DNA of 23,508 bases from a virus. Taxonomy: Duplodnaviria; Heunggongvirae; Uroviricota; Caudoviricetes. The DNA lies in the IMG/VR virus record IMGVR_UViG_2663763227_000016, one strand, 5' to 3'. Shown piece by piece: positions 1,422 to 23,508 of this stretch. A program made the position numbers and the translations under genes. Numbering within the stretch: position 1 is the stretch's first letter; each line of letters starts with the position of its first letter. The notes below the pieces were generated by a model. It did no database searches, had not been told where the DNA came from, and worked only from the letters and a program-made list of their open reading frames with translations.

Positions 1422-3893
1422 TTAAAAATCAGCCTGATTCGGGATCAGTTTTTGCCAGATAGCTGAAACGTATTTTGCCTGGTAACGGGCATCATCCAGC
1501 GCATTGTGGCGCTCACCTTCGAATGGGATAGCAGTTCTGGCATCGAAGTCTACGGCTTTCCCCAGCTCAACGATTGTGCGTACATCGCGATCGTTGCAGT
1601 AGCGCCACGGGCAGGGGATACCCTGTCGTTCGTATGAACGGCGCAAAATCGTGTTGTCGAAGTTGGCCCCATTACCCCAGACCTGAACAAAAAACTCACC
1701 GGAGTTTTCGTCGATAAATTCCCGCAATTGCAGTAGTGCATCATCTAACGGGATTTCATCGGTCATAATGGCAGACTGCGCTTCACGTGATTGCTTCAGC
1801 CACCATTTAATGACGTCACGATCAATGACTCCGCCAGCAGTATCCAGATCGATGGTCTTGCTAAATTCTGGTCCCATATCTCCGGTTTGCGGATCGAAAA
1901 ATATTGCGCCTATTGAGATAATCGGGGCATCGGGATTTTTTCCCATGGTTTCAAGGTCGATCATCAGATGAATCCCCGCTCTGCTGGTGGATGTGAGATT
2001 ATGATGACTGTTCGCCTTAATTAAGGGATCTGACGCCTCGCCAGTTTCACTATCGCTGGCATGATGCTGATTGCCGCCAGTGTTCTCCTTGTGCTGATGT
2101 GCAGTACCTTCCATTTCCTCCGGATCATTTTCCTGAACTTCAGGCTGATTCTCTTCATCGAATATTTCCTGGTATGTTGCGTCGCCCATCACCGCGCCAC
2201 AATCAGGGCAGTTGCCGCCGCCGGTCTGACCGCAGGCGGTGCAGACTTTTTCCGGTTCCTGTTGCGCCACTGGTTCAGGCTGTTTCGTTTCTGGCTCGTT
2301 TTGTAACGCATTTGGGCTGTTTTGTTCCGCTTTCTGGTCGTTCTGTTCCGTTTCTTGCTGGTTCTGGTTCACAGAATCGCGGGTTTCAATCCCCTTCACC
2401 CATTTCGGATCATTCGGGTCGCTAATCCCTGCAACAAATTCACCACGTGATGCGGCGAGCAACTGATTGGCGTCAGGCTGGCTGATATTGGCTGCCTGCA
2501 TAATTTTCTTTACTTCGTCAGCGGTAACTTTTACCGGTTCTGGTTGTTCAGAATTTTGTGCGGTATTTGCATTTTGCGGTAAGCCTGTGTATGTGCCATT
2601 TTTTCGGGCAAAATATTCTTCTTTTGTGATTTCAGTAGCCCCGGCAGCCAGCGCCTTATCCAGACCAGAAAGTTTGTTTGCGCGACCGTATTTTTCGCAA
2701 TCCTTGTCGGTGAAGAAGAAGTAGAACGGCCCCTCACGCTCTACAGATGGTTCGACTTCCACTTTGCATTCGGTTTTTTCGTTGTCCGGAATTGCCGTTT
2801 CCACTGCATCAGTTTCTGGTACTGGCGACGAGAGAGTGTCAGTTGCGCTCTGATTTGTTCCTTCATCTTCAAACACGCCCTTTGTAGTCAGGTATTCAGT
2901 AATGTATTTGTTCAGTGCCACAGGGTCTTTGTGAATGTCGATCGGACGTTCACGGACAAGGCCAAAAATAGTCTGGCGGTCGTAGCGAAGGGCATCAGGC
3001 TGTTTGCGCATTGATGCCGAGATACGCTTCCAGTCTTCGCGGTCGTTGTCGATAACTTCATTTTTTGCCCAGCGATGGATGCTGCCGTCAATGTTTCCGG
3101 CATCCACATCACCAGGCCAGAGAGCGTAGGCCAGTTCGTCATCCAGTGTTTTCCATGTCTGCTTATATTCGCGACGAATGACTGCAGTGACAGGGGGGAT
3201 TTTTTCTGCTGAGTTTTCAGTGTGCTGTCGGTGGACTCTGGCGCGGGCGAGATCAACAACAGACGTGTATTTTCCGGTTTCCTTGCGTTCACCTTCGCGA
3301 CGTTTTTTCCAGATGCGCATCTCTGCCTGAATTTCGGGCCATTTGGCACCAGGCTTACATTTATGCTTAACCCACCCGATGGCATGCAGCTTAAGCTCCG
3401 GATACATGGCGTTAACTTCTGGCATTTTCATCAACGCTTCAACGATATGTCCGTCGAATGTTGCCATGTCTTCCTGCAACAATTCCTGCGCGCTAATCAC
3501 CATATCAACGGTGATGTTTTCACATGTGTCGAACTTAACCATGACAGCGTTCTGTACTTCAGGGGCCAGCTTGTCAAAAGCGACGTTCATCGGATCTGAT
3601 TCAGTCTCAACCGGGACAAAGGAAGTAGCCCCCTCATCCCAGCGGTTTTCCTGCATATATTCAGCATCCCATGAATCGAGGGCAGGGCGGGGTATACCGG
3701 GTTTATCCTCGCAAACAAGAAATTTATAAGCGCAGTCCTGAGCAGCCGGATAATGCTCCAGGAATTGCCAGTGAAATTTTGCGCGGGCGCGACGTTCATC
3801 ACCGGCTTCAATGGCAGTGGCTACAGCGACTGCACCTTCTTCCTTTATTGCCTGTTCGTCCGGAATGGCGGCGCAAATAAAGACTTTACTCAT
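1422..3893 (-). CDS. Large phage exonuclease with a C-terminal DnaQ-like (DEDDh) 3'-5' exonuclease domain
   Basis: 823-aa ORF with GAGG ribosome-binding site 9 nt upstream of the ATG at 3893. The C-terminal third carries Exo I/II/III-like motifs (MIDLETMG, WGNGANFDNTIL, HNALDDARYQAKY). A central acidic Q/E/N/P-rich linker contains a CxxC...CxxC element. K-12 ydfE is probably an N-terminal fragment of this family. Confidence 0.75.
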   Translation of the reverse strand: MSKVFICAAIPDEQAIKEEGAVAVATAIEAGDERRARAKFHWQFLEHYPAAQDCAYKFLVCEDKPGIPRPALDSWDAEYMQENRWDEGATSFVPVETESDPMNVAFDKLAPEVQNAVMVKFDTCENITVDMVISAQELLQEDMATFDGHIVEALMKMPEVNAMYPELKLHAIGWVKHKCKPGAKWPEIQAEMRIWKKRREGERKETGKYTSVVDLARARVHRQHTENSAEKIPPVTAVIRREYKQTWKTLDDELAYALWPGDVDAGNIDGSIHRWAKNEVIDNDREDWKRISASMRKQPDALRYDRQTIFGLVRERPIDIHKDPVALNKYITEYLTTKGVFEDEGTNQSATDTLSSPVPETDAVETAIPDNEKTECKVEVEPSVEREGPFYFFFTDKDCEKYGRANKLSGLDKALAAGATEITKEEYFARKNGTYTGLPQNANTAQNSEQPEPVKVTADEVKKIMQAANISQPDANQLLAASRGEFVAGISDPNDPKWVKGIETRDSVNQNQQETEQNDQKAEQNSPNALQNEPETKQPEPVAQQEPEKVCTACGQTGGGNCPDCGAVMGDATYQEIFDEENQPEVQENDPEEMEGTAHQHKENTGGNQHHASDSETGEASDPLIKANSHHNLTSTSRAGIHLMIDLETMGKNPDAPIISIGAIFFDPQTGDMGPEFSKTIDLDTAGGVIDRDVIKWWLKQSREAQSAIMTDEIPLDDALLQLREFIDENSGEFFVQVWGNGANFDNTILRRSYERQGIPCPWRYCNDRDVRTIVELGKAVDFDARTAIPFEGERHNALDDARYQAKYVSAIWQKLIPNQADF

Positions 3894-3985
3894 TTTGTTT
3901 TACCTCATTACAGATTTAAGGGTGAACAAATCCCTGCCATTGCTGGCATATAAGAATGAAATCGGATGTTTATTACGGAACTGTT

Positions 3986-4177
3986 TTAAAGACCTGCCGG
4001 GATTTCGCTATTATCCTGGTGAATAACTTTATCGACAGGGTAACAGTTACCGGGAATTTTCTGTTCGGTTGCTGCAGTCACACACTCCTGCATTGTCCTG
4101 TGAACACTGACTGCAATATCAACTGGCTCTCCGGAAACAAGAAAAACTGTCAGAACAAGTGCAAATGCTGTATTCAT
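3986..4177 (-). CDS. ydfD: YdfD-like small membrane protein (reported prophage lysis protein)
   Basis: 63-aa ORF (MNTAFALVLTVFLVSGEP...) with a hydrophobic N-terminus. Its ATG overlaps the dicB stop in an ATGA junction (4174-4177), indicating translational coupling. Gene order matches dicB-ydfD of the K-12 Qin prophage. Confidence 0.65.
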   Translation of the reverse strand: MNTAFALVLTVFLVSGEPVDIAVSVHRTMQECVTAATEQKIPGNCYPVDKVIHQDNSEIPAGL

Positions 4178-4362
4178 TGCCAGCATCCTTTTTGTATCGG
4201 TCGTAAACGGGCCAGCATTGAAAGAATGCATATTTTATTTAATAACTCCCGTTCGTGTTTTCTCTTGTTAATGGCATCTTCAGTAAATACAGGGTTACTG
4301 ATAGTGACACCAATTTCAAAACAACCTTCAGACGTATTAACGTTTGGTAATAACGTTTCCAT
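4174..4362 (-). CDS. dicB: Cell division inhibitor DicB
   Basis: 62-aa ORF METLLPNVNTSEGCFEIGVTISNPVFTEDAINKRKHERELLNKICILSMLARLRPIQKGCWQ, which I recognise as DicB. GAGGA lies 7 nt upstream of the ATG at 4362, and the gene sits directly downstream of the DicF sequence. Confidence 0.85.
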   Translation of the reverse strand: METLLPNVNTSEGCFEIGVTISNPVFTEDAINKRKHERELLNKICILSMLARLRPIQKGCWQ

Positions 4363-4528
4363 TATCGCGTCCTCAACAATGAATTTTGTGATGCGGTGCC
4401 TGGTGCCTCCAGGTGACGTTAACCAGTTAACAATTAACGCCGGATACAGAGAATCCACCCATAACACTGTTTTTGGTTTTAACTGTTCCGCGTGCGCTTA
4501 GCCGCATTCACTGCATCACAAAATTCAC

Positions 4529-4586
4529 TTTAAAAAGGGTGGCAGAGCAGTCACGGAGTAGAACTGATGCCACCAAAGACTACACA
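4529..4586 (-). ncRNA. dicF: DicF small regulatory RNA (ftsZ-targeting), processed from the operon transcript
   Basis: The minus strand reads ...GTAGTCTTTGGTGGCATCAGTTCTACTCCGTGACTGCTCTGCCACCCTTTTTAAAG, nearly identical to my recollection of K-12 DicF. It has the long-range stem GGTGGCA/TGCCACC followed by a U-run. Ends are approximate (+/-5 nt). Confidence 0.8.
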
Positions 4587-4911
4587 TGGATATTGTGGCG
4601 GGGCTGTCACTTAAGCGTATGGTCAGCCTGACAACCCGGTGTCCTCAAGGGGAAGGAATAACCCCGCCATACTTACCGCCGCGCCATTTCGCGGATTGCC
4701 ACAACCGGAAGCGCACGGTCGAATTAAATTTAACGACAAAGTACAGAGAGACGAGCTTCTCCGTGTGCTTTCGCGTTATGCTCTGACTTTTCAGAGAAAT
4801 ATCCTTTCAGTAAACTGTCAGTGCCGGATGTTCACCCGTGTCCGGCGCACGCACTCCACTTCACCCGTGGAGAACTCCTTAATTACCAACCTTAGCTTCG
4901 TTGGTTAGCTA

Positions 4912-5739: not shown

Positions 5740-5790
5740 TATAATGTACTTTGCGTTCATTGTTGTAAAGTACTTTTAGTACATTTTGTG
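5740..5790. promoter_or_regulatory. Candidate repressor operator / early-left promoter region (ATGTACT and inverted AGTACAT motifs)
   Basis: ATGTACT at 5744-5750 and its reverse complement at 5779-5785 within AAAGTACTTTTAGTACATTT, overlapping a TATATAAT box. The same 7-mer recurs twice in the repressor/cro intergenic region. Confidence 0.4.
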
Positions 5791-5859: not shown

Positions 5860-6279
5860 TTAAGAGGCTTTTTGTTTTTTCTTTCGTGCTAACTCTTCGT
5901 AAATTGCATTGTACTTCTGTTTTTTCTCTTCAAGAGTTTTTAAAAGTTCATCTGTCTCACTGTCAGGGAGCTCGTCCAGAAGGTCAATGATGATTTTTTG
6001 TCTTGGATTTAACTCCTGATAGAAACGTACCTGTCCACTTTCTTCTGTATCCTCTCCCAAAAGATAGGTTGGTGTTGTTCCTATTAGTGTTGCTAATTCC
6101 CTTAATTTCTCCCGGCGAGGAATTGTTTCGCCATTAAACCATTTGCTAACCGCTTTTGGTGTTAATTTCATTCGACGGGCAATTTCTGCCTGCCTTCCAT
6201 GTTGTTCATAACCAGCGTTTTCACAGGCTAGCGCAAGCCTACTGGCGAACTCTTTACGCGCTTTATCTTCATGAACCAT
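5860..6279 (-). CDS. Prophage repressor, XRE-family HTH (DicA/RacR-like, CI analogue)
   Basis: 139-aa ORF with an N-terminal helix-turn-helix (QAEIARRMKLTPKAVSKWFNGETIP) and an acidic/coiled C-terminal domain (LLDELPDSETDELLKTLEEKK). It is divergent from a Cro-like gene across an 80-bp intergenic region containing repeated ATGTACT motifs. Confidence 0.8.
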   Translation of the reverse strand: MVHEDKARKEFASRLALACENAGYEQHGRQAEIARRMKLTPKAVSKWFNGETIPRREKLRELATLIGTTPTYLLGEDTEESGQVRFYQELNPRQKIIIDLLDELPDSETDELLKTLEEKKQKYNAIYEELARKKKQKAS

Positions 6280-6358
6280 AAGTTCAATGATATTCGCTCT
6301 TGAATGTACTGTCAGTTCTGTTATAGCATGTACTCAAAGTTCACATTGTGAGGGTGAT
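6280..6358. promoter_or_regulatory. Divergent promoter/operator region between the repressor and the Cro-like gene
   Basis: 80-bp intergenic region carrying two direct copies of ATGTACT (6304-6310 and 6328-6334). Confidence 0.45.
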
Positions 6359-6613
6359 ATGAACCAGAAAACACTTGAAGATGTAATCAAAACTGTTCGC
6401 GTTGCTGTTGTGGCCGACGTTTGTGGTGTCAGCCAAAGAGCAATCTATAAATGGATGGATAACGGAAAATTGCCTCGCACAGAATATACCGGCGAAACAA
6501 ATTACGCTGAAAAAATCGCTCTTGCATCAAACGGATTATTTTCTGCCGATGCAATTTTAACTATTGGCAGGAATAAAACTACTACGAAAAAGCTGATGGG
6601 AGTTGATTCATGA
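6359..6613 (+). CDS. Cro-like HTH regulator (YdaS/DicC-like)
   Basis: 84-aa ORF MNQKTLEDVIKTVRVAVVADVCGVSQRAIYKWMDNGKLP..., with GAGGG 5 nt upstream of the ATG. It is divergent from the repressor, and its stop overlaps the next ATG (ATGA at 6610-6613). Confidence 0.7.
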   Translation: MNQKTLEDVIKTVRVAVVADVCGVSQRAIYKWMDNGKLPRTEYTGETNYAEKIALASNGLFSADAILTIGRNKTTTKKLMGVDS

Positions 6614-7035
6614 AAATCAAGCATGAACACATCCGCATGGCGATGAATGCCTGGGCGCATCCGGACGGCGAAAAAGTACCGGCTGCGAAAATTACCAAAG
6701 CGTATTTCGAGCTGGGAATGACGTTCCCGGAACTGTATGACGACAGCCATCCGGAAGCCCTGGCCCGTAATACCCAGAAAATTTTCCGTTGGCTGGATAA
6801 AGACACCCCTGATGCTGTTGAAAAAATGCAGGCTCTGTTACCGGCGATCGAAAAGGCGATGCCGCCTTTGCTGGTGGCCCGTATGCGCAGCCACAGTTCT
6901 GAATATTACCGTGAGATCGTCGAACGGAGGGATCGGCTGGTGAAGGATGTCGATGATTTTGTTGCGTCAGCGGTTGTTTTGTATGACCAGATGAATCGCG
7001 GCGGCCCGGCAGGGAATGCTGTGGTGATGCACTAA
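6610..7035 (+). CDS. YdaT-like protein (proposed CII functional analogue / toxic when overexpressed)
   Basis: 141-aa ORF beginning MKIKHEH, which I recall as the YdaT N-terminus. It is translationally coupled to the Cro-like gene; the order repressor / Cro-like / YdaT-like matches racR-ydaS-ydaT of Rac. Confidence 0.6.
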   Translation: MKIKHEHIRMAMNAWAHPDGEKVPAAKITKAYFELGMTFPELYDDSHPEALARNTQKIFRWLDKDTPDAVEKMQALLPAIEKAMPPLLVARMRSHSSEYYREIVERRDRLVKDVDDFVASAVVLYDQMNRGGPAGNAVVMH

Positions 7036-7057
7036 AAGCACGGTGTTCGGGGGGGTT

Positions 7058-8020
7058 ATGAGCAGCAAGCTTCATGGTCTTGTCTGGGAAGGGTGCGCCT
7101 TCACCGGCATGATCTTATCCAGGGTGGCGGTTATGGCCCGTCTTGCAGACTACAGCAATGACGAGGGCGTGTCATGGCCTGCCATTGAAACTATCCGGCG
7201 TCAGATCGGTGCAAGAAGTGAATCCACAGTGAAATCGGCTATTGCAGAACTGGCGAAAGAGGGCTGGCTGACGAAGGAAGAGCGTAAGGTCGGTGGGCGT
7301 AATGTAAGCAATATCTATCGGCTTAATGTGGAAAAACTCGAAGCAGCTGCGGCGGCGGCGCGTGAGTCATATAAACCGAAAAGAAAAATTAGCCCGGCAA
7401 AAAATGACCCGTTAACAGTTGACCCGTCAAATATTGACCCCTCAACGGTTGACCCGTCAAATTTTGATGGATCAACTGTTGATAAAAAACTGCCGATTAG
7501 GGGGGCGATGATTGACCCCGATCCGTCAGTATTAAAACCTGATCCGTCAGATAAAAGATCTTCTTGTCCGGACGCTTCGCAACCGGACCCGCAGACGGCT
7601 GAACAGGATTTTTTAACCCGACACCCTGACGCGGTTGTGTTCAGTGCGAAAAAACGCCAGTGGGGAAGTCAGGAAGATTTGGTGTGCGCACAGTGGATCT
7701 GGGGACGAATCGTGAGTCTTTACGAGCAGGCGGCCAGCTATGATGGCGAGATCACTAGACCGAAAGAACCCAACTGGACAGCATGGGCCAATGACGTTCG
7801 CACAATGCGGATGCTGGATGGCAGAACTCACAGACAAATTTGTGAAATGTTTGGGCGTCTCCAGCGGGATTCGTTCTGGGTAAAAAACATCATGAGTCCG
7901 GCAAAACTCCGGGAAAAATGGGATGAACTGGTTATCCGCCTGGGGCGTTCGCCTGCGCAGCGTTGCGTGAATCACATTTCTGAACCGGACACTGAAATAC
8001 CGCCGGGATTCAGGGGGTGA
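7058..8020 (+). CDS. Replication initiation protein (O-like / YdaU-like) containing the origin iterons
   Basis: ORF with an N-terminal winged-helix-like region and a central pentapeptide-repeat stretch (TVDPS NIDPS TVDPS NFDGS TVD) encoded by 15-bp direct repeats. It is followed by a DnaC-like loader. Start chosen at ATG 7058 after a G-run; the six-frame ORF track begins the ORF at 7043. Confidence 0.7.
   Translation: MSSKLHGLVWEGCAFTGMILSRVAVMARLADYSNDEGVSWPAIETIRRQIGARSESTVKSAIAELAKEGWLTKEERKVGGRNVSNIYRLNVEKLEAAAAAARESYKPKRKISPAKNDPLTVDPSNIDPSTVDPSNFDGSTVDKKLPIRGAMIDPDPSVLKPDPSDKRSSCPDASQPDPQTAEQDFLTRHPDAVVFSAKKRQWGSQEDLVCAQWIWGRIVSLYEQAASYDGEITRPKEPNWTAWANDVRTMRMLDGRTHRQICEMFGRLQRDSFWVKNIMSPAKLREKWDELVIRLGRSPAQRCVNHISEPDTEIPPGFRG
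7404..7490 (+). repeat. Replication origin iterons: about six tandem 15-bp units (TTGACCCGTCAAnnn), followed by GATC-containing repeats
   Basis: Direct repeats at 7404, 7419, 7434, 7449, 7464 and 7479, all inside the replication gene. GATCCGTCAG occurs twice further downstream (about 7517-7550). Confidence 0.65.
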
Positions 8021-8026
8021 CGTGTC

Positions 8027-8773
8027 ATGAAAAACATTGCGGCAGTTGGGGTTCTTGAACGTATTCGCAGACTTGCACCACAGGGGTCGGTTCCACCGTA
8101 CCGGACGGTGGAGGAGTGGCGGGAATGGCAACTTGCTGAAGGACGAAAACGCAGCGAGGAGATTAACCGCCAGAATCGCCAGTTGCGGGTGGAAAAAATC
8201 CTGAATCGTTCGGGCATCCAGCCTCTGCACAGCAAATGCTCGTTTGCAAATTATCAGGTGCAGAACGACGGGCAAAAATACGCGCTGAGCCAGGCCAAAT
8301 CCATAGCTGACGAACTGATGACCGGGTGCACGAATTTTGTGTTCAGCGGTAAAACCGGCACCGGGAAAAATCACCTTGCAGCGGCGATGGGCAACCGGCT
8401 GATGGTGAAGGGGCGCAGCGTGATTATCGTCACCGTGTCTGACGTCATGAGCGTGTTGCATGACAGCTACGACAACGGCAAATCCGGGGAAAAATTTTTA
8501 CAGGAGCTTTGCGGGGTTGATTTGCTGGTCCTGGATGAAATAGGCGTTCAGCGGGAGACGAAAAACGAGCAGGTGGTATTGCACCAGATAATTGATCGCC
8601 GGACAGCATCACTGTGCAGTGTCGGGATGTTAACAAACCTGAATCATGCCGCAATGAGTACGCTTCTTGGTGAGAGGATTATGGACCGCATGACCATGAA
8701 CGGTGGTCGATGGGTGACGTTTAACTGGGATAGCTGGCGTCCAAATGTCAGCAATATGAGGGTTGTGAAGTAA
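8027..8773 (+). CDS. DnaC-like replicative helicase loader (IstB-like AAA+ ATPase)
   Basis: 248-aa ORF with Walker A (FSGKTGTGKNHLAAAMG) and Walker B (LLVLDEIG) motifs, immediately downstream of the replication initiator. Confidence 0.85.
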   Translation: MKNIAAVGVLERIRRLAPQGSVPPYRTVEEWREWQLAEGRKRSEEINRQNRQLRVEKILNRSGIQPLHSKCSFANYQVQNDGQKYALSQAKSIADELMTGCTNFVFSGKTGTGKNHLAAAMGNRLMVKGRSVIIVTVSDVMSVLHDSYDNGKSGEKFLQELCGVDLLVLDEIGVQRETKNEQVVLHQIIDRRTASLCSVGMLTNLNHAAMSTLLGERIMDRMTMNGGRWVTFNWDSWRPNVSNMRVVK

Positions 8774-8794
8774 TTTTGTCCGGAGGAAATTTTA

Positions 8795-9565
8795 ATGGAA
8801 ACCGTATCTGACGCACTGAAAGCACTGAAAAAAGCCTCTTCACATGTGGTGGCAGCTCGCCTTGGAATCAGTCGTGAAGAGGCTGTCAACGAGCTGTGGG
8901 AACTCAAAAGAAAAGGCGTCGTTGATAAAACTGGTCACACCTGGTTTCTGGCTGGCGAAGGTGAATCCCGGGTAACCGAAGAGCGGCCAGTAAAATCTGA
9001 AGCACAGGATATGCTGACCGGGGAGGTCGAACAAAAAGTTACCGCAGACATGATGATTGAGTTTATCGGTCAGGATGGGGCTAAAACGTGTGAGGAACTG
9101 GCGGGTAAGTTCGGTGTCAGTACTCGCAAGGTTGCTTCCACGCTGGCGGTGGTAACCGCAACGGGGCGGCTGGCACGCGTTAATCAGAACGGTAAATTTC
9201 GTTACTGCATGCCGGGCGATAATTTACCAGCAGAGCCGAAAGCCGCGCTGGTAACGGAAAGTGATGGTAAGGCCTTTCCTCAGCCAGCAGGTGCTGCGTT
9301 ACCAGGCCGGGAAGCCGCAACACAGGAAGAAATTAAAACAGAAACTGTGGCGGACATTGTGCAGTCGTTGCCATCGTTTACCGAAACGCAAGCAGATGAG
9401 CTGATTTTTCCGTCCCTGCGCAGGGCAAACCTGGCGCTGCGCAGGGCGAAAAGTGATGTTCAGAAGTGGGAGCGAGTCTGCGCCGCGCTGCGGGAGCTGA
9501 ACAAGCACCGGGATATTGTTCGACAGATTACTGATTCTTCCCGCCGTGTTGTATCGGAAAAGTGA
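8795..9565 (+). CDS. Hypothetical phage protein with two winged-helix-like repeats
   Basis: 256-aa ORF with GGAGGA 7 nt upstream of the ATG. Two internally similar segments resemble each other (LGISREEAVNELWELKRKGVV and CEELAGKFGVSTRKVASTLAVV). No function recognised. Confidence 0.6.
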   Translation: METVSDALKALKKASSHVVAARLGISREEAVNELWELKRKGVVDKTGHTWFLAGEGESRVTEERPVKSEAQDMLTGEVEQKVTADMMIEFIGQDGAKTCEELAGKFGVSTRKVASTLAVVTATGRLARVNQNGKFRYCMPGDNLPAEPKAALVTESDGKAFPQPAGAALPGREAATQEEIKTETVADIVQSLPSFTETQADELIFPSLRRANLALRRAKSDVQKWERVCAALRELNKHRDIVRQITDSSRRVVSEK

Positions 9566-10159: not shown

Positions 10160-10846
10160 ATGACCCCAATAAAAATATTTATGACTATTGCTGATTTCAA
10201 ACGGCCTAAATTGGAGCTCCCAAACGGGGCAAACAAACTACTACTGCACTCTTGCTGTGCTCCATGTTCCGGTGAAGTGATGGAGGCGCTTCAGGCCTCG
10301 AGAATCGACTACACCATCTTTTTCTACAACCCGAACATTCATCCTCAGAAAGAGTATTTAATTCGTAAGGATGAAAATATTCGCTTTGCTGAACAACACG
10401 GCGTGCCGTTTATCGATGCTGATTACGACACCGACAACTGGTTTGAACGTGCCAAAGGAATGGAATGGGAGCCTGAGAGGGGGATCCGTTGTACCATGTG
10501 TTTTGACATGCGTTTTGAGCGGACAGCGTTGTACGCTGCTGAAAATGGTTTCAGTGTGATCAGCAGTTCACTGGGCATTTCACGCTGGAAAAATATGCAG
10601 CAGGTTAACGAGTGTGGGCGGCGAGCTGTTGCGCATTATCCGGGTATGGTGTACTGGGATTATAACTGGCGCAAGCAGGGCGGCTCGTCCCGTATGATTG
10701 AAATCAGCAAGCGCGAAAAATTCTATCAGCAGGAATATTGTGGCTGTGTGTATTCTCTGCGCGATACCAATCTACACCGCAAATCTCAGGGACGCCCTCT
10801 TATCAAAATTGGCCAACTCCACTACGGAAAAGAAGAGAAGGAGTGA
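10160..10846 (+). CDS. QueH-like epoxyqueuosine reductase (DUF208 family) moron
   Basis: 228-aa ORF with the N-terminal [11 protein letters not shown] motif I recognise from DUF208/QueH, plus further Cys residues (CTMCFD, CGCVY). There is no clear ribosome-binding site at either candidate start (10160 or 10181). Confidence 0.6.
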
Positions 10847-14350: not shown

Positions 14351-15400
14351 ATGCTTAATACTGTAAAAATATCCAGTTGTGAGTTAATCAACGCCGACTG
14401 CCTGGAATTTATCCGGTCGTTACCCGAAAATTCTGTTGACCTGATAGTCACGGACCCGCCGTACTTTAAAGTGAAGCCTGAGGGCTGGGATAACCAGTGG
14501 AAGGGCGACGATGATTACCTGAAGTGGCTGGACCAGTGTCTGGCGCAGTTCTGGCGGGTGCTGAAACCTGTCGGAAGTCTTTACCTGTTCTGTGGTCATC
14601 GCCTGGCATCTGATATCGAAATCATGATGCGTGAACGCTTCAGTGTGCTGAACCATATTATCTGGGCGAAGCCGTCCGGACGCTGGAACGGATGCAACAA
14701 GGAAAGCCTGCGGGCGTATTTCCCCGCCACAGAGCGCATTCTGTTCGCGGAACATTATCAGGGGCCGTATCGTCCGAAAGATGCCGGGTATGCGGCGAAG
14801 GGCAGTGCACTGAAACAGCATGTGATGGCCCCGCTGATTTCTTACTTTCGTGATGCGCGCGCTGCCCTGGGGATAACGGCAAAACAGATTGCAGATGCCA
14901 CAGGAAAGAAAAACATGGTGTCGCACTGGTTCAGTGCCAGTCAGTGGCAGCTACCGAACGAAAGCGATTATCTGAAATTACAGTCGCTGTTTGCCCGGGT
15001 GGCAGAAGAGAAACATCAGCGCGGTGAACTGGAAAAGCCCCACCACCAGCTGGTGGATACGTATACGTCACTGAACCGGCAGTATGTGGAGCTGCAGAGT
15101 GAATATAAGCATCTGCGGCGGTATTTTGGTGTGACGGCGCAGGTGCCGTACACGGATGTGTGGACACATAAACCGGTGCAGTTCTATCCCGGGAAACATC
15201 CGTGCGAAAAACCGGCAGAAATGCTGCAGCAGATAATCAGCGCAAGCAGTCGTCCGGGTGACCTGGTTGCAGATTTTTTTATGGGCTCAGGTTCAACGGT
15301 AAAAGTGGCACTGGCGCTCGGGCGTCGTGCGATTGGCGTTGAACTGGAGACCGGACGTTTTGAGCAGACAGTCAGGGAAGTTCAGGATTTAATCGTTTGA
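14351..15400 (+). CDS. DNA methyltransferase, beta-class amino-methyltransferase (N6-adenine or N4-cytosine), no restriction partner
   Basis: 349-aa ORF with the catalytic DPPY motif (LIVTDPPYF) near the N-terminus and the AdoMet-binding FxGxG motif (DFFMGSGST) near the C-terminus, the beta-class order. No endonuclease gene is adjacent. Confidence 0.85.
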   Translation: MLNTVKISSCELINADCLEFIRSLPENSVDLIVTDPPYFKVKPEGWDNQWKGDDDYLKWLDQCLAQFWRVLKPVGSLYLFCGHRLASDIEIMMRERFSVLNHIIWAKPSGRWNGCNKESLRAYFPATERILFAEHYQGPYRPKDAGYAAKGSALKQHVMAPLISYFRDARAALGITAKQIADATGKKNMVSHWFSASQWQLPNESDYLKLQSLFARVAEEKHQRGELEKPHHQLVDTYTSLNRQYVELQSEYKHLRRYFGVTAQVPYTDVWTHKPVQFYPGKHPCEKPAEMLQQIISASSRPGDLVADFFMGSGSTVKVALALGRRAIGVELETGRFEQTVREVQDLIV

Positions 15401-22608: not shown

Positions 22609-23508
22609 ATGATGAGTGCTGTCACAACAGCATTACAGCCCCTGATAAGGGCATTGCCGGTGACGCCAGTTGAATGGGCTGATCAAAATTATTATCTGCC
22701 TAAAGAATCTTCATATGGTGAGGGAGAATGGAAAACGCTGCCGTTCCAGATCGCCATCATGAACAGCATGGGGAATGATCAGATCCGGACTGTTAATCTG
22801 ATTAAATCTGCCCGTGTTGGCTATACAAAGATGTTGCTGGGAGTCGCCGGGTATTTTATTGAGCATAAATCCCGAAACAGTCTGCTTTTTCAGCCCACGG
22901 ATTCTGCCGCTGAAGATTTTATGAAGTCTCACGTGGAGGCGACGATTCGCGATGTTCCCTGCCTGAAAAAACTTTCTCCCTGGCTGGGACGTAAACATCG
23001 TGATAATACCATCACGCTGAAACGCTTTTCATCGGGTGTGGGCTTCTGGTGCCTGGGCGGCGCTGCCGCCAAAAACTACCGTGAAAAATCCGTGGACGTG
23101 GTCTGCTATGACGAACTTTCCTCGTTCGAGCCGGATGTCGAAAAAGAGGGCTCGCCAACCCTGCTGGGGGATAAGCGTATTGAGGGCTCGGTATGGCCAA
23201 AATCCATTCGCGGCTCGACGCCTAAAATAAAAGGCTCCTGCCAGATCGAAAAAGCGGCCAACGAGTCGGCGCATTTCATGCGTTTTTATGTGCCCTGCCC
23301 GCACTGTGGGGAGGCGCAGTATCTGAAATTTGGCGATGAGTCCACGCCTTTTGGCCTTAAATGGGAGAAGGACAGCCCCGAAAGCGTTTTCTACCTCTGT
23401 GAACATCATGGCTGCGTGATCCATCAGTCTGATATTAGACGTCAACTAGTTTTGCCGACTCGCGCCAACTATACTGGCCGCCCCCTTCAGTGCGACATCA
23501 AGTCGCGC
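22609..23508 (+). CDS. Terminase large subunit (gpA-like), 3'-truncated by the window edge
   Basis: Open frame from ATGATG at 22609 to the window end (300 codons, no stop). Strong similarity to lambda gpA N-terminal blocks as I recall them (VEWADQNYYLPKESSYGEGEWKTLPFQIAIMN; WCLGGAAAKNYREKSVDV; GDKRIEGSVWPKSIRGSTPK; FMRFYVPCPHCGEAQYLKFGD). Confidence 0.9.
   Translation, partial: MMSAVTTALQPLIRALPVTPVEWADQNYYLPKESSYGEGEWKTLPFQIAIMNSMGNDQIRTVNLIKSARVGYTKMLLGVAGYFIEHKSRNSLLFQPTDSAAEDFMKSHVEATIRDVPCLKKLSPWLGRKHRDNTITLKRFSSGVGFWCLGGAAAKNYREKSVDVVCYDELSSFEPDVEKEGSPTLLGDKRIEGSVWPKSIRGSTPKIKGSCQIEKAANESAHFMRFYVPCPHCGEAQYLKFGDESTPFGLKWEKDSPESVFYLCEHHGCVIHQSDIRRQLVLPTRANYTGRPLQCDIKSR

Follow-up and report, generated by a model that had tools for sequence, protein, structure and literature searches.

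We found that positions ~7404-7565 of the DNA stretch analysed here, the virus record IMGVR_UViG_2663763227_000016 (23.5 kb, called the window below), very probably serve a lambdoid prophage of E. coli as its replication origin, and that this origin would be encoded in the disordered linker of the prophage's own O-like initiator, Rep. From sequence comparison we infer that the region has origin activity and that Rep binds its repeated units, the iterons. Origin iterons inside the replication gene, as in lambda O, had been proposed in a preliminary description of the window, and comparison with relatives supports this proposal strongly: the repeats start at codon 116, they are constrained at the DNA level, they flip in orientation, their type is specific to the clade, and their copy number changes in steps of 15 bp. 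The rep gene and its parts are as follows, with amino acids abbreviated as aa, AlphaFold2 as AF2 and its predicted local distance difference test score as pLDDT.

7058-8020, plus strand: replication initiator gene (rep), 320 aa (open reading frame list, Pfam HTH_36, PHROG 391, RefSeq coding sequence of APEC O18)
7058-7372, plus strand: N-terminal winged-helix DNA-binding domain (N-domain), aa 1-105, presumed reader of the iterons (HTH_36, AF2, Foldseek)
7379-7594, plus strand: interdomain linker, aa 108-179, predicted to be disordered (AF2 pLDDT <50, without secondary structure)
7403-7588, plus strand: near-fixed synonymous codons, aa 116-177, inside the linker (per-column codon table)
7601-7957, plus strand: C-terminal domain (C-domain), homologue of the C-terminal half of lambda O, with which lambda O contacts its loader P (BLASTP, tblastn)

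The elements inside the linker are the following, where mismatches are counted against TTGA-N4-TCAA.

7404-7475: iteron array in rep, five palindromic units of 12 bp, one every 15 bp (7404, 7419, 7434, 7449, 7464)
7404: unit 1, ATGACCCGTTAA, 2 mismatches
7419: unit 2, TTGACCCGTCAA, exact
7434: unit 3, TTGACCCCTCAA, exact
7449: unit 4, TTGACCCGTCAA, exact
7464: unit 5, TTGATGGATCAA, exact
7479: unit 6, TTGATAAAAAAC, degenerate with an A-run, left arm only
within 7479-7523: decayed head-to-head pair after unit 6, TTAGGGGGGCGA-TGA-TTGACCCCGATC
7520-7561: A/T-rich GATC block, with GATCCGTCAG at 7520-7529, GATCCGTCAG at 7541-7550 and AGATCT at 7556-7561
7526-7565: least stable 40-mer of rep, 68% A+T, candidate unwinding element (nearest-neighbour profile)

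The four exact matches to TTGA-N4-TCAA are the only ones in the 23.5 kb, and all of them lie in tandem at 7419-7475. The consensus of the array is TTGA-SSSS-TCAA (S = G or C), from which unit 5 of the window deviates by its TGGA centre. Four copies of TTGANNNNTCAA are present in the window, all in the array, against a mean of 0.67 in dinucleotide shuffles, none of which (0/100) reached four. Over 7393-7482, Tandem Repeats Finder reported a period of 15 (~71% matches) and a period of 30 (80-84%). No further iteron copies are present in the rest of the 23.5 kb, the cI/cro immunity region included. The preliminary description had counted six tandem 15-bp units. Their coordinates and sequences are right, but the number six is generous, as four units are strong, one is fair and one is only half a unit. 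Its reading of the units as pentapeptides holds in the frame of the 7058-8020 open reading frame (NDPLT VDPSN IDPST VDPSN FDGST VDKKL). The repeats occupy codons 116-140 of rep and the GATC block codons 155-168. The head-to-head pair between them is decayed in the window, and its counterpart in Edwardsiella and Erwinia is a clean palindrome, GGGGTCAA-TGG-TTGACCCC.

Homologues were collected by a scan of one genome per species, which gave 71 loci, almost all in Enterobacterales, and 47 non-redundant ones after removal of near-identical sequences. The wider rep family is spread through Enterobacterales prophages. TGACnnGTCA or a variant of it was found in nearly all 71 loci at an equal offset in the gene and with 15-bp spacing, and it was nearly absent from the 6-kb flanks. 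The homologues were aligned by codon, and synonymous codon use was compared per column. The median fraction of the top codon was 0.49 in 77 columns of the N-domain and 0.97 in 35 columns of the linker (Mann-Whitney p=3e-14, 47 homologues); the median nucleotide identity of the N-domain among the 47 non-redundant homologues was 63%. The Ser codon of the linker is TCA in 66 of 66 homologues, and synonymous codon freedom comes back after aa 180.

The anatomy of the units was determined in the SfIV-type clade, from 141 units in 32 loci. The information content is 1.1-2.0 bits in the arms, TCTGAC and TCAAAA, third codon positions included, and ~0.5 bit at positions 1 and 3 of the centre codon, which encodes Ala, Pro, Thr, Gly or Val. 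Conserved arms around a free centre are the pattern expected of a binding site with two half-sites, and neither that of recent transfer nor that of a selected peptide. In the clade of the window (Edwardsiella, Erwinia, Morganella, Escherichia) the palindrome occurs in both orientations, with CCCC as the centre of 14 units and GGGG as that of 13. Because the orientation of the palindrome decides whether DPS or EGS stands in the protein, a flip rewrites the encoded peptide, and the units read either as (I/V)DP(S/P) or as VEG(S/L). These orientation flips are the strongest single observation that argues for selection at the DNA level. Such selection on the repeats is therefore indicated by the fixed synonymous codons of the linker, the conserved arms, the free centres and the flips taken together.

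Loss of the 15-mers from homologues that keep the protein repeats had been named as evidence against origin iterons, and the reverse was found: the DNA arms stay while the encoded peptide varies (DPS, EGS, DAS, DTS, DGS). Judged by this comparison, it is the DNA motif, read in frame, that gives rise to the pentapeptide repeats (DPSxx) as a side effect, and they are not a selected protein feature. Structural pentapeptide repeats are conserved and folded, whereas here the peptide varies and the region is predicted to be disordered.

The repeat consensi are distinct for most clades of the N-domain: TTGA-SSSS-TCAA in the clade of the window, TCTGAC-NNN-TCAAAA in the SfIV clade, CCTCCAGAATCTGGAGG in two smaller clades and TCTGAAC.TTCAGA in one further clade. 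The mEp460-type 'primosomal protein I' has the same layout of N-domain, repeats, A/T-rich stretch and C-domain, and its C-domain is 86-92% identical to that of the window. However, its N-domain is unrelated, the same place is taken by five unrelated repeats, CATYGGKTCAAAAYG, spaced ~21-24 bp, and there is no GATCCGTCAG pair. The mosaic joint of the window gene with other E. coli O-family genes is at 7553, just past the block, and 7553-8018 is shared with them at 86-91% identity; the SfII type shares the window sequence from 7520 onward. Since the mEp460 type combines the same C-domain with another N-domain and other repeats, and since the joint is at 7553, the comparison indicates that N-domain and repeats travel as one unit and that the C-domain is exchangeable, as is known for O proteins. 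The number of units ranges from 2 to 10 in relatives. In E. coli, 5-aa indels within the array distinguish the alleles of 320, 315, 310 and 305 aa from one another, and a 303-aa allele also lacks one GATCCGTCAG unit.

The match of Rep to PHROG 391, 'replication initiation O-like', spans the whole protein (E 2e-115). Pfam HTH_36 was found at aa 30-76. The AF2 model of the N-domain has the order H-H-H-H-E-E-H with pLDDT ~70-90, and a Foldseek search with it returned generic winged-helix regulators (E ~1e-2), the DnaD N-domain appearing only at rank 25. In the linker the pLDDT is 30-39. With BLASTP, aa 182-300 of the initiator are 39% identical to aa 171-277 of lambda O over 119 aa (E 5e-26), and tblastn with the C-domain gave matches in lambda, DE3 and Stx phages. 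Part of the C-domain (query aa 61-119) is 45-52% identical to 'replisome organizer' or DnaD proteins of Bacillus phages. SPP1 G38P-type replisome organisers also have the origin inside their own gene. To these DnaD-like organisers the relationship in sequence is distant, and the winged-helix N-domain of Rep shows a weak DnaD_N similarity. The initiator is thus O-like in its predicted design and in its C-domain, not in its presumed origin-reading domain, and it is not a strict orthologue of lambda O. The tail of the initiator (last ~20 residues, 7958-8020, ending ...EPDTEIPPGFRG) has a weak similarity (E 0.004) to the C-terminus of DnaT, a primosomal protein of the host, and this similarity probably explains the annotations as 'primosomal protein I'. 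Together with a DnaC-like neighbour, the DnaT-like tail echoes the host dnaT-dnaC gene pair.

The likeness to ori-lambda extends to the position in the gene. In lambda O, the N-domain (PF04492 / TIGR01610) extends to residue 115 and the iterons follow from codon 116, where the repeats of the window also begin; the lambda origin and the putative one here are thus both placed mid-gene, immediately behind the DNA-binding N-domain. Ori-lambda has four iterons, and the origins of the Stx phages 933W and P27 have six (iteron number 4 to 6; PMC7466680). In these origins, several iterons of dyad symmetry are followed by an A/T-rich tract; the window has such iterons too, followed by a weaker candidate tract. 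The type also shares with Rep the homologous C-domain, the varying iteron number, and the N-domain and iterons as one unit of specificity. Lambda has P as the partner of its initiator, whereas the partner here would be a DnaC-like ATPase; sister clades have a P-like gene. Closer relatives are the initiators of the SfII/SfIV/phiNP/phiP27 type (PHROG 391), whose N-domain is ~53% identical. They have 15-bp iterons with a TGACnnnTCA core at the same offset, a palindrome before the block and the same GATC block. They differ from the window in the arms of the iterons (TCTGAC / TCAAAA) and in the spacing of the GATC sites (24 bp instead of 21). A Dam gene is often directly downstream in this type, and there is no adjacent loader gene.

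The preliminary description had noted that GATCCGTCAG occurs twice and AGATCT once right after the repeats, and we confirmed these sites at 7520, 7541 and 7556. Both GATCCGTCAG units are one-mismatch variants of the iteron core TGACCCGTCA. In all clades a palindrome closes the array and is followed by GGGGATCC(G/A)TCAGTAA...GATCC...AAAA. The 40-mer at 7526-7565 has a stability of -46.9 kcal/mol (mean of the window -55.2, standard deviation 4.1) and is outside the window's extreme 1%. The block of the SfIV type aligns with the right end of the A/T-rich tract of lambda, with a score that 0 of 500 shuffles reach. Because of this alignment and because the least stable 40-mer lies there, we read the block as the probable unwinding part of the origin. 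A segment of lambda O (L080, 1157-1185), GATTATTCGTCAGAGAATTCTGGCGAATCC, resembles the palindrome and block of the rep family, CCGTCAGAATCTGGCGGGGATCCGTCAG (L003, ~1560-1640). From this comparison, lambda and the rep family may have homologous right halves of the origin, despite the differing N-domains and iterons.

Together with a GATC at 7470, the sites of the block give 4 GATC in 88 bp, the densest 100-bp GATC stretch of the 23.5 kb. Under random placement, the probability that any 4 of the 64 sites fall within 87 bp is ~0.09, and that any 3 fall within 37 bp is ~0.25. A second cluster of three GATC within 37 bp is present at 22749-22782. It is therefore the conservation in relatives, and not the density in the window alone, that marks the block as non-random. 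Among 46 non-redundant loci, the 62-nt block has a mean of 2.15 GATC, whereas the remainder of the gene has 0.18 per 62 nt (a ~12-fold difference), and 40 of the 46 loci have at least two GATC in the block at a spacing of 18, 21 or 24 bp.

A coupling of initiation to Dam methylation through this cluster had also been suggested. Such a layer on top of the origin, in which the GATC pair in the unwinding block makes initiation dependent on methylation, is possible and should be regarded as tentative. Hemimethylated DNA might be sequestered by SeqA, as at oriC and P1 oriR, or binding or melting might depend on methylation, as at oriII of V. cholerae. Methylation-dependent origins have been described for V. 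cholerae oriII and P1 (PMC2865523). The likeness of the window to oriC, P1 oriR and oriII would be that GATC sites are clustered in or beside the presumed part for unwinding or initiator binding, in a Dam-positive host group; the difference is that there are only 2-4 GATC here and that DnaA boxes are at the level of chance, with a single TGTGGAAAA at 7327.

The GATC enrichment in the block and the pair in 40 of 46 relatives favour a Dam-dependent layer. GATC also persists where the surrounding motif changes, for example as GATCCACAAG in Citrobacter (L066 and L068), and the Asp codons of the block are GAT in 70 of 70 and 60 of 60 homologues, whereas those of the iterons are mostly GAC (78-90%). 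A Dam-family (PF05869) gene lies at most ~3 kb downstream of rep, often abutting it, in 35 of ~76 loci (L005 2520-3173, L004 2346-3227, L002 2910-3563 and 32 further loci such as L029 from 3861 and L046 from 3873), which is a raw count without a control frequency for lambdoid early regions; the window lacks such a gene there. On the other hand, the cluster is not significant within the window alone (P ~0.09), and since the block is fixed in all its codons, GATC is kept no better than the neighbouring bases. The second GATC is lost in 6 of 46 loci (GAACC). The homologous segment of lambda has ATTC and not ATCC, and the lambda origin is without GATC. The window's own methylase is of the N6_N4_Mtase family. 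The gene for this 349-aa DNA methyltransferase (PF01555), at 14351-15400, stands right before a cluster of tRNA genes (Ile, Arg, Arg according to the APEC O18 annotation).

The pair of GATC sites and the frequent Dam gene downstream thus stand on one side, and the lack of significance in the window and the equally fixed neighbours on the other. That a lambdoid origin should contain its own adenine-methylation switch, by which the phage times or licenses its replication through its own or the host Dam, is an idea that we hold with considerable doubt. If it is true, firing of this origin family would depend on methylation of the block, or the origin would be sequestered by it, a layer that the lambda origin lacks. 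The synonymous change from GAT to GAC would be a clean genetic handle on Dam control of a lambdoid origin.

Several points weigh against the assignment of 7404-7565 as a lambda-like origin. The N-domain falls outside the family of the lambda O N-domain, since it matches HTH_36 only and lambda O matches PF04492 (Phage_rep_O) and TIGR01610. With one 12-bp palindrome every 15 bp (1.4 helical turns), the array is tighter than that of lambda, whose longer palindromic units are ~20-24 bp apart, and neighbouring units of the window lie on different faces of the helix; the geometry of the complex would therefore differ from that of lambda. The A/T-rich tract is modest (68% A+T and ~2 standard deviations less stable than the mean, against 76% A+T in lambda) and carries 2-3 conserved GATC sites absent from lambda. 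The alignment of the window block with lambda DNA is not significant on its own, as 63 of 500 shuffles reach its score. No paper on the origin of SfII, SfIV or the rep family was found in a search that left older subscription-journal literature outside, and no rep_origin feature was present under the matches in 57 phage GenBank records. No paper on the repeat motif in a phage context was found either.

A 15,977-bp E. coli circle, NZ_CP148542.1 (L081, pZ1322PEC0161-2), contains only this early region (cI / cro / YdaT / rep / DnaC-like ... Q / lysis, with rep at 1675-2637), has no replicon type listed and resembles lambda-dv. As natural evidence of autonomous replication it was rejected, for its rep and ydaT genes have frameshifts in homopolymers, of the kind typically left in long-read assemblies before polishing. 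The circle may be an unpolished assembly or an artefact.

Other candidate functions of the array were considered and rejected. Shuffled sequences fold less well than the array (z = -3.6) because the units of the array are tandem and palindromic; such folding is automatic, and a hairpin or cruciform was discounted as separate evidence. As for an RNA element, Rfam gave only a sub-threshold mir-250 match, which is due to chance. The TTGAC repeats were rejected as sigma-70 -35 boxes, there being no promoter-like or terminator-like site in 6900-8100. The FNR box is TTGAT-N4-ATCAA; on inspection of the sequence, the 5-bp arms of the array are just 2 bp apart, which is the wrong spacing for FNR/CRP-type boxes. 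DnaA boxes of the TTWTNCACA type were found in the window at 7327 and 5789 only, where ~1.4 are estimated by chance, so they are not significant. The DnaA-box-like TGTGGAAAA (reverse complement TTTTCCACA) at 7327-7335 is 77 bp before the iterons. No IHF consensus was present in 6000-9000.

The region could instead be a conserved boundary between modules, a 'linker' that promotes homologous exchange, or recently exchanged DNA, and not an origin. The mosaic joints at the block, both with the O-family genes and with the SfII type, are in line with this, and so is the GGGGATCC...GATCC block common to clades with differing iterons. However, recent exchange would keep all positions, yet the arms are fixed and the centres free; the units flip orientation, their number varies, and the iteron type is specific to the clade and tracks the N-domain. 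The codon position and the C-domain homology match the proven origin of lambda, and exchange at the borders of an origin is itself expected of O-type genes. We therefore consider this explanation improbable.

It is very improbable that Rep or another regulator uses the units as operator-like sites, for autoregulation or as a roadblock on the loader and nin-region genes, with the origin elsewhere. The palindromic units do lie beside the gene of a winged-helix protein, and the iterons of many replicons double as autoregulatory sites. Nevertheless, the sites are in the middle of the gene and not at a promoter, 6900-8100 being free of promoter-like and terminator-like sites, and the 23.5 kb has no further copies, not even in the cI/cro region. 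Nor was any other candidate with repeats and an A/T-rich stretch seen near the replication genes. Selection of the pentapeptide repeat (DPSxx) as a protein linker, with identical codons arising from slippage or concerted evolution, would suit repeats that are in frame in a Pro/Ser/Asp-rich linker and indels in multiples of 5 aa, but it is hardly credible when the amino-acid repeat varies (DPS to DGS, as listed above) with the DNA arms kept, when genera with N-domains only ~63% identical in nucleotides have the same synonymous codons fixed, and when concerted evolution within a genome cannot hold codons across Providencia, Rahnella, Klebsiella and Escherichia.

For the origin, the following sequence of events is plausible. 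The initiator would be transcribed rightward together with the cro-like and YdaT-like genes, whose order is observed in the window. Dimers of the winged-helix N-domain would bind 4-5 TTGA-N4-TCAA iterons and form a complex like the O-some. The neighbouring A/T-rich GATC block, ~7524-7565, would then melt. The lambda-O-like C-domain would recruit the host helicase via the adjacent DnaC-like loader, as its homology suggests. The GATC sites, 2-3 of which are conserved, may add a layer dependent on Dam and SeqA as a secondary hypothesis.

The window is an E. coli lambdoid prophage whose rep gene is 100% identical to the copy on the APEC O18 chromosome, where the prophage adjoins ompW. The product of rep is named 'helix-turn-helix domain-containing protein' in RefSeq, and its open reading frame has a further possible start, GTG at 7043. 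The full-length gene was found in ~1,500 of 5,426 complete E. coli genomes, O157:H7 and APEC strains among them. The neighbouring genes are as follows.

5860-6279, minus strand: cI-like repressor
6287-6613: cro-like gene, upstream of rep
6610-7035: YdaT-like gene, directly before rep
8027-8773, plus strand: DnaC-like helicase-loader gene, presumed partner of the initiator (Pfam IstB_IS21 and Bac_DnaA, NCBIfam PRK12377, PHROG 50)

The product of 8027-8773 matches the NCBIfam DnaC model with E 2e-89, but its 299 bits are below the cut-off of 357 bits. Among relatives, the gene after the initiator is DnaC-like in 9 loci, the window included, and lambda-P-like in 9, and in most others it is not adjacent. 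The lambda-P-like neighbour is found in the nearest non-E. coli relatives of the window. Besides 8027-8773 of the window, instances of the swapped gene are in L006-L010 and L034 (~4040-4660) and in L066 and L068 (~3840-4600). In one E. coli allele (L001), DUF977 directly follows the initiator. A gene for QueH (epoxyqueuosine reductase) at 10160-10846, downstream of DUF1627 and DUF977 genes, is apparent cargo of the early region, and in the APEC O18 annotation it is followed by the toxin gene hokD. Tandem Repeats Finder also reported a 21-bp unit four times at 2280-2366 and, just past the cI-like gene on its 3' side, a 24-bp unit twice at 5742-5789; both are unrelated to the iterons.

In conclusion, the putative origin has a design familiar from lambda, which seems to be undescribed in the rep family. 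An origin at that position of the gene is what a specialist would expect, and the evidence for overlapping constraint on DNA and protein is unusually clean. If the assignment is true, the rep family would be an unusually clean case of a DNA-binding site that dictates amino acids, in which a strand flip turns DPS into EGS. For annotators, the 'pentapeptide repeats' and the polymorphism of protein length would be consequences of selection at the DNA level. Fixed synonymous codons in the interdomain linker may serve as a rule for finding origins in O-like genes, and the natural pairs of N-domain and iterons as a set for studies of specificity. This widespread initiator allele is currently without an annotated origin, and locating the origin would give a defined target for studies of prophage induction and replication.

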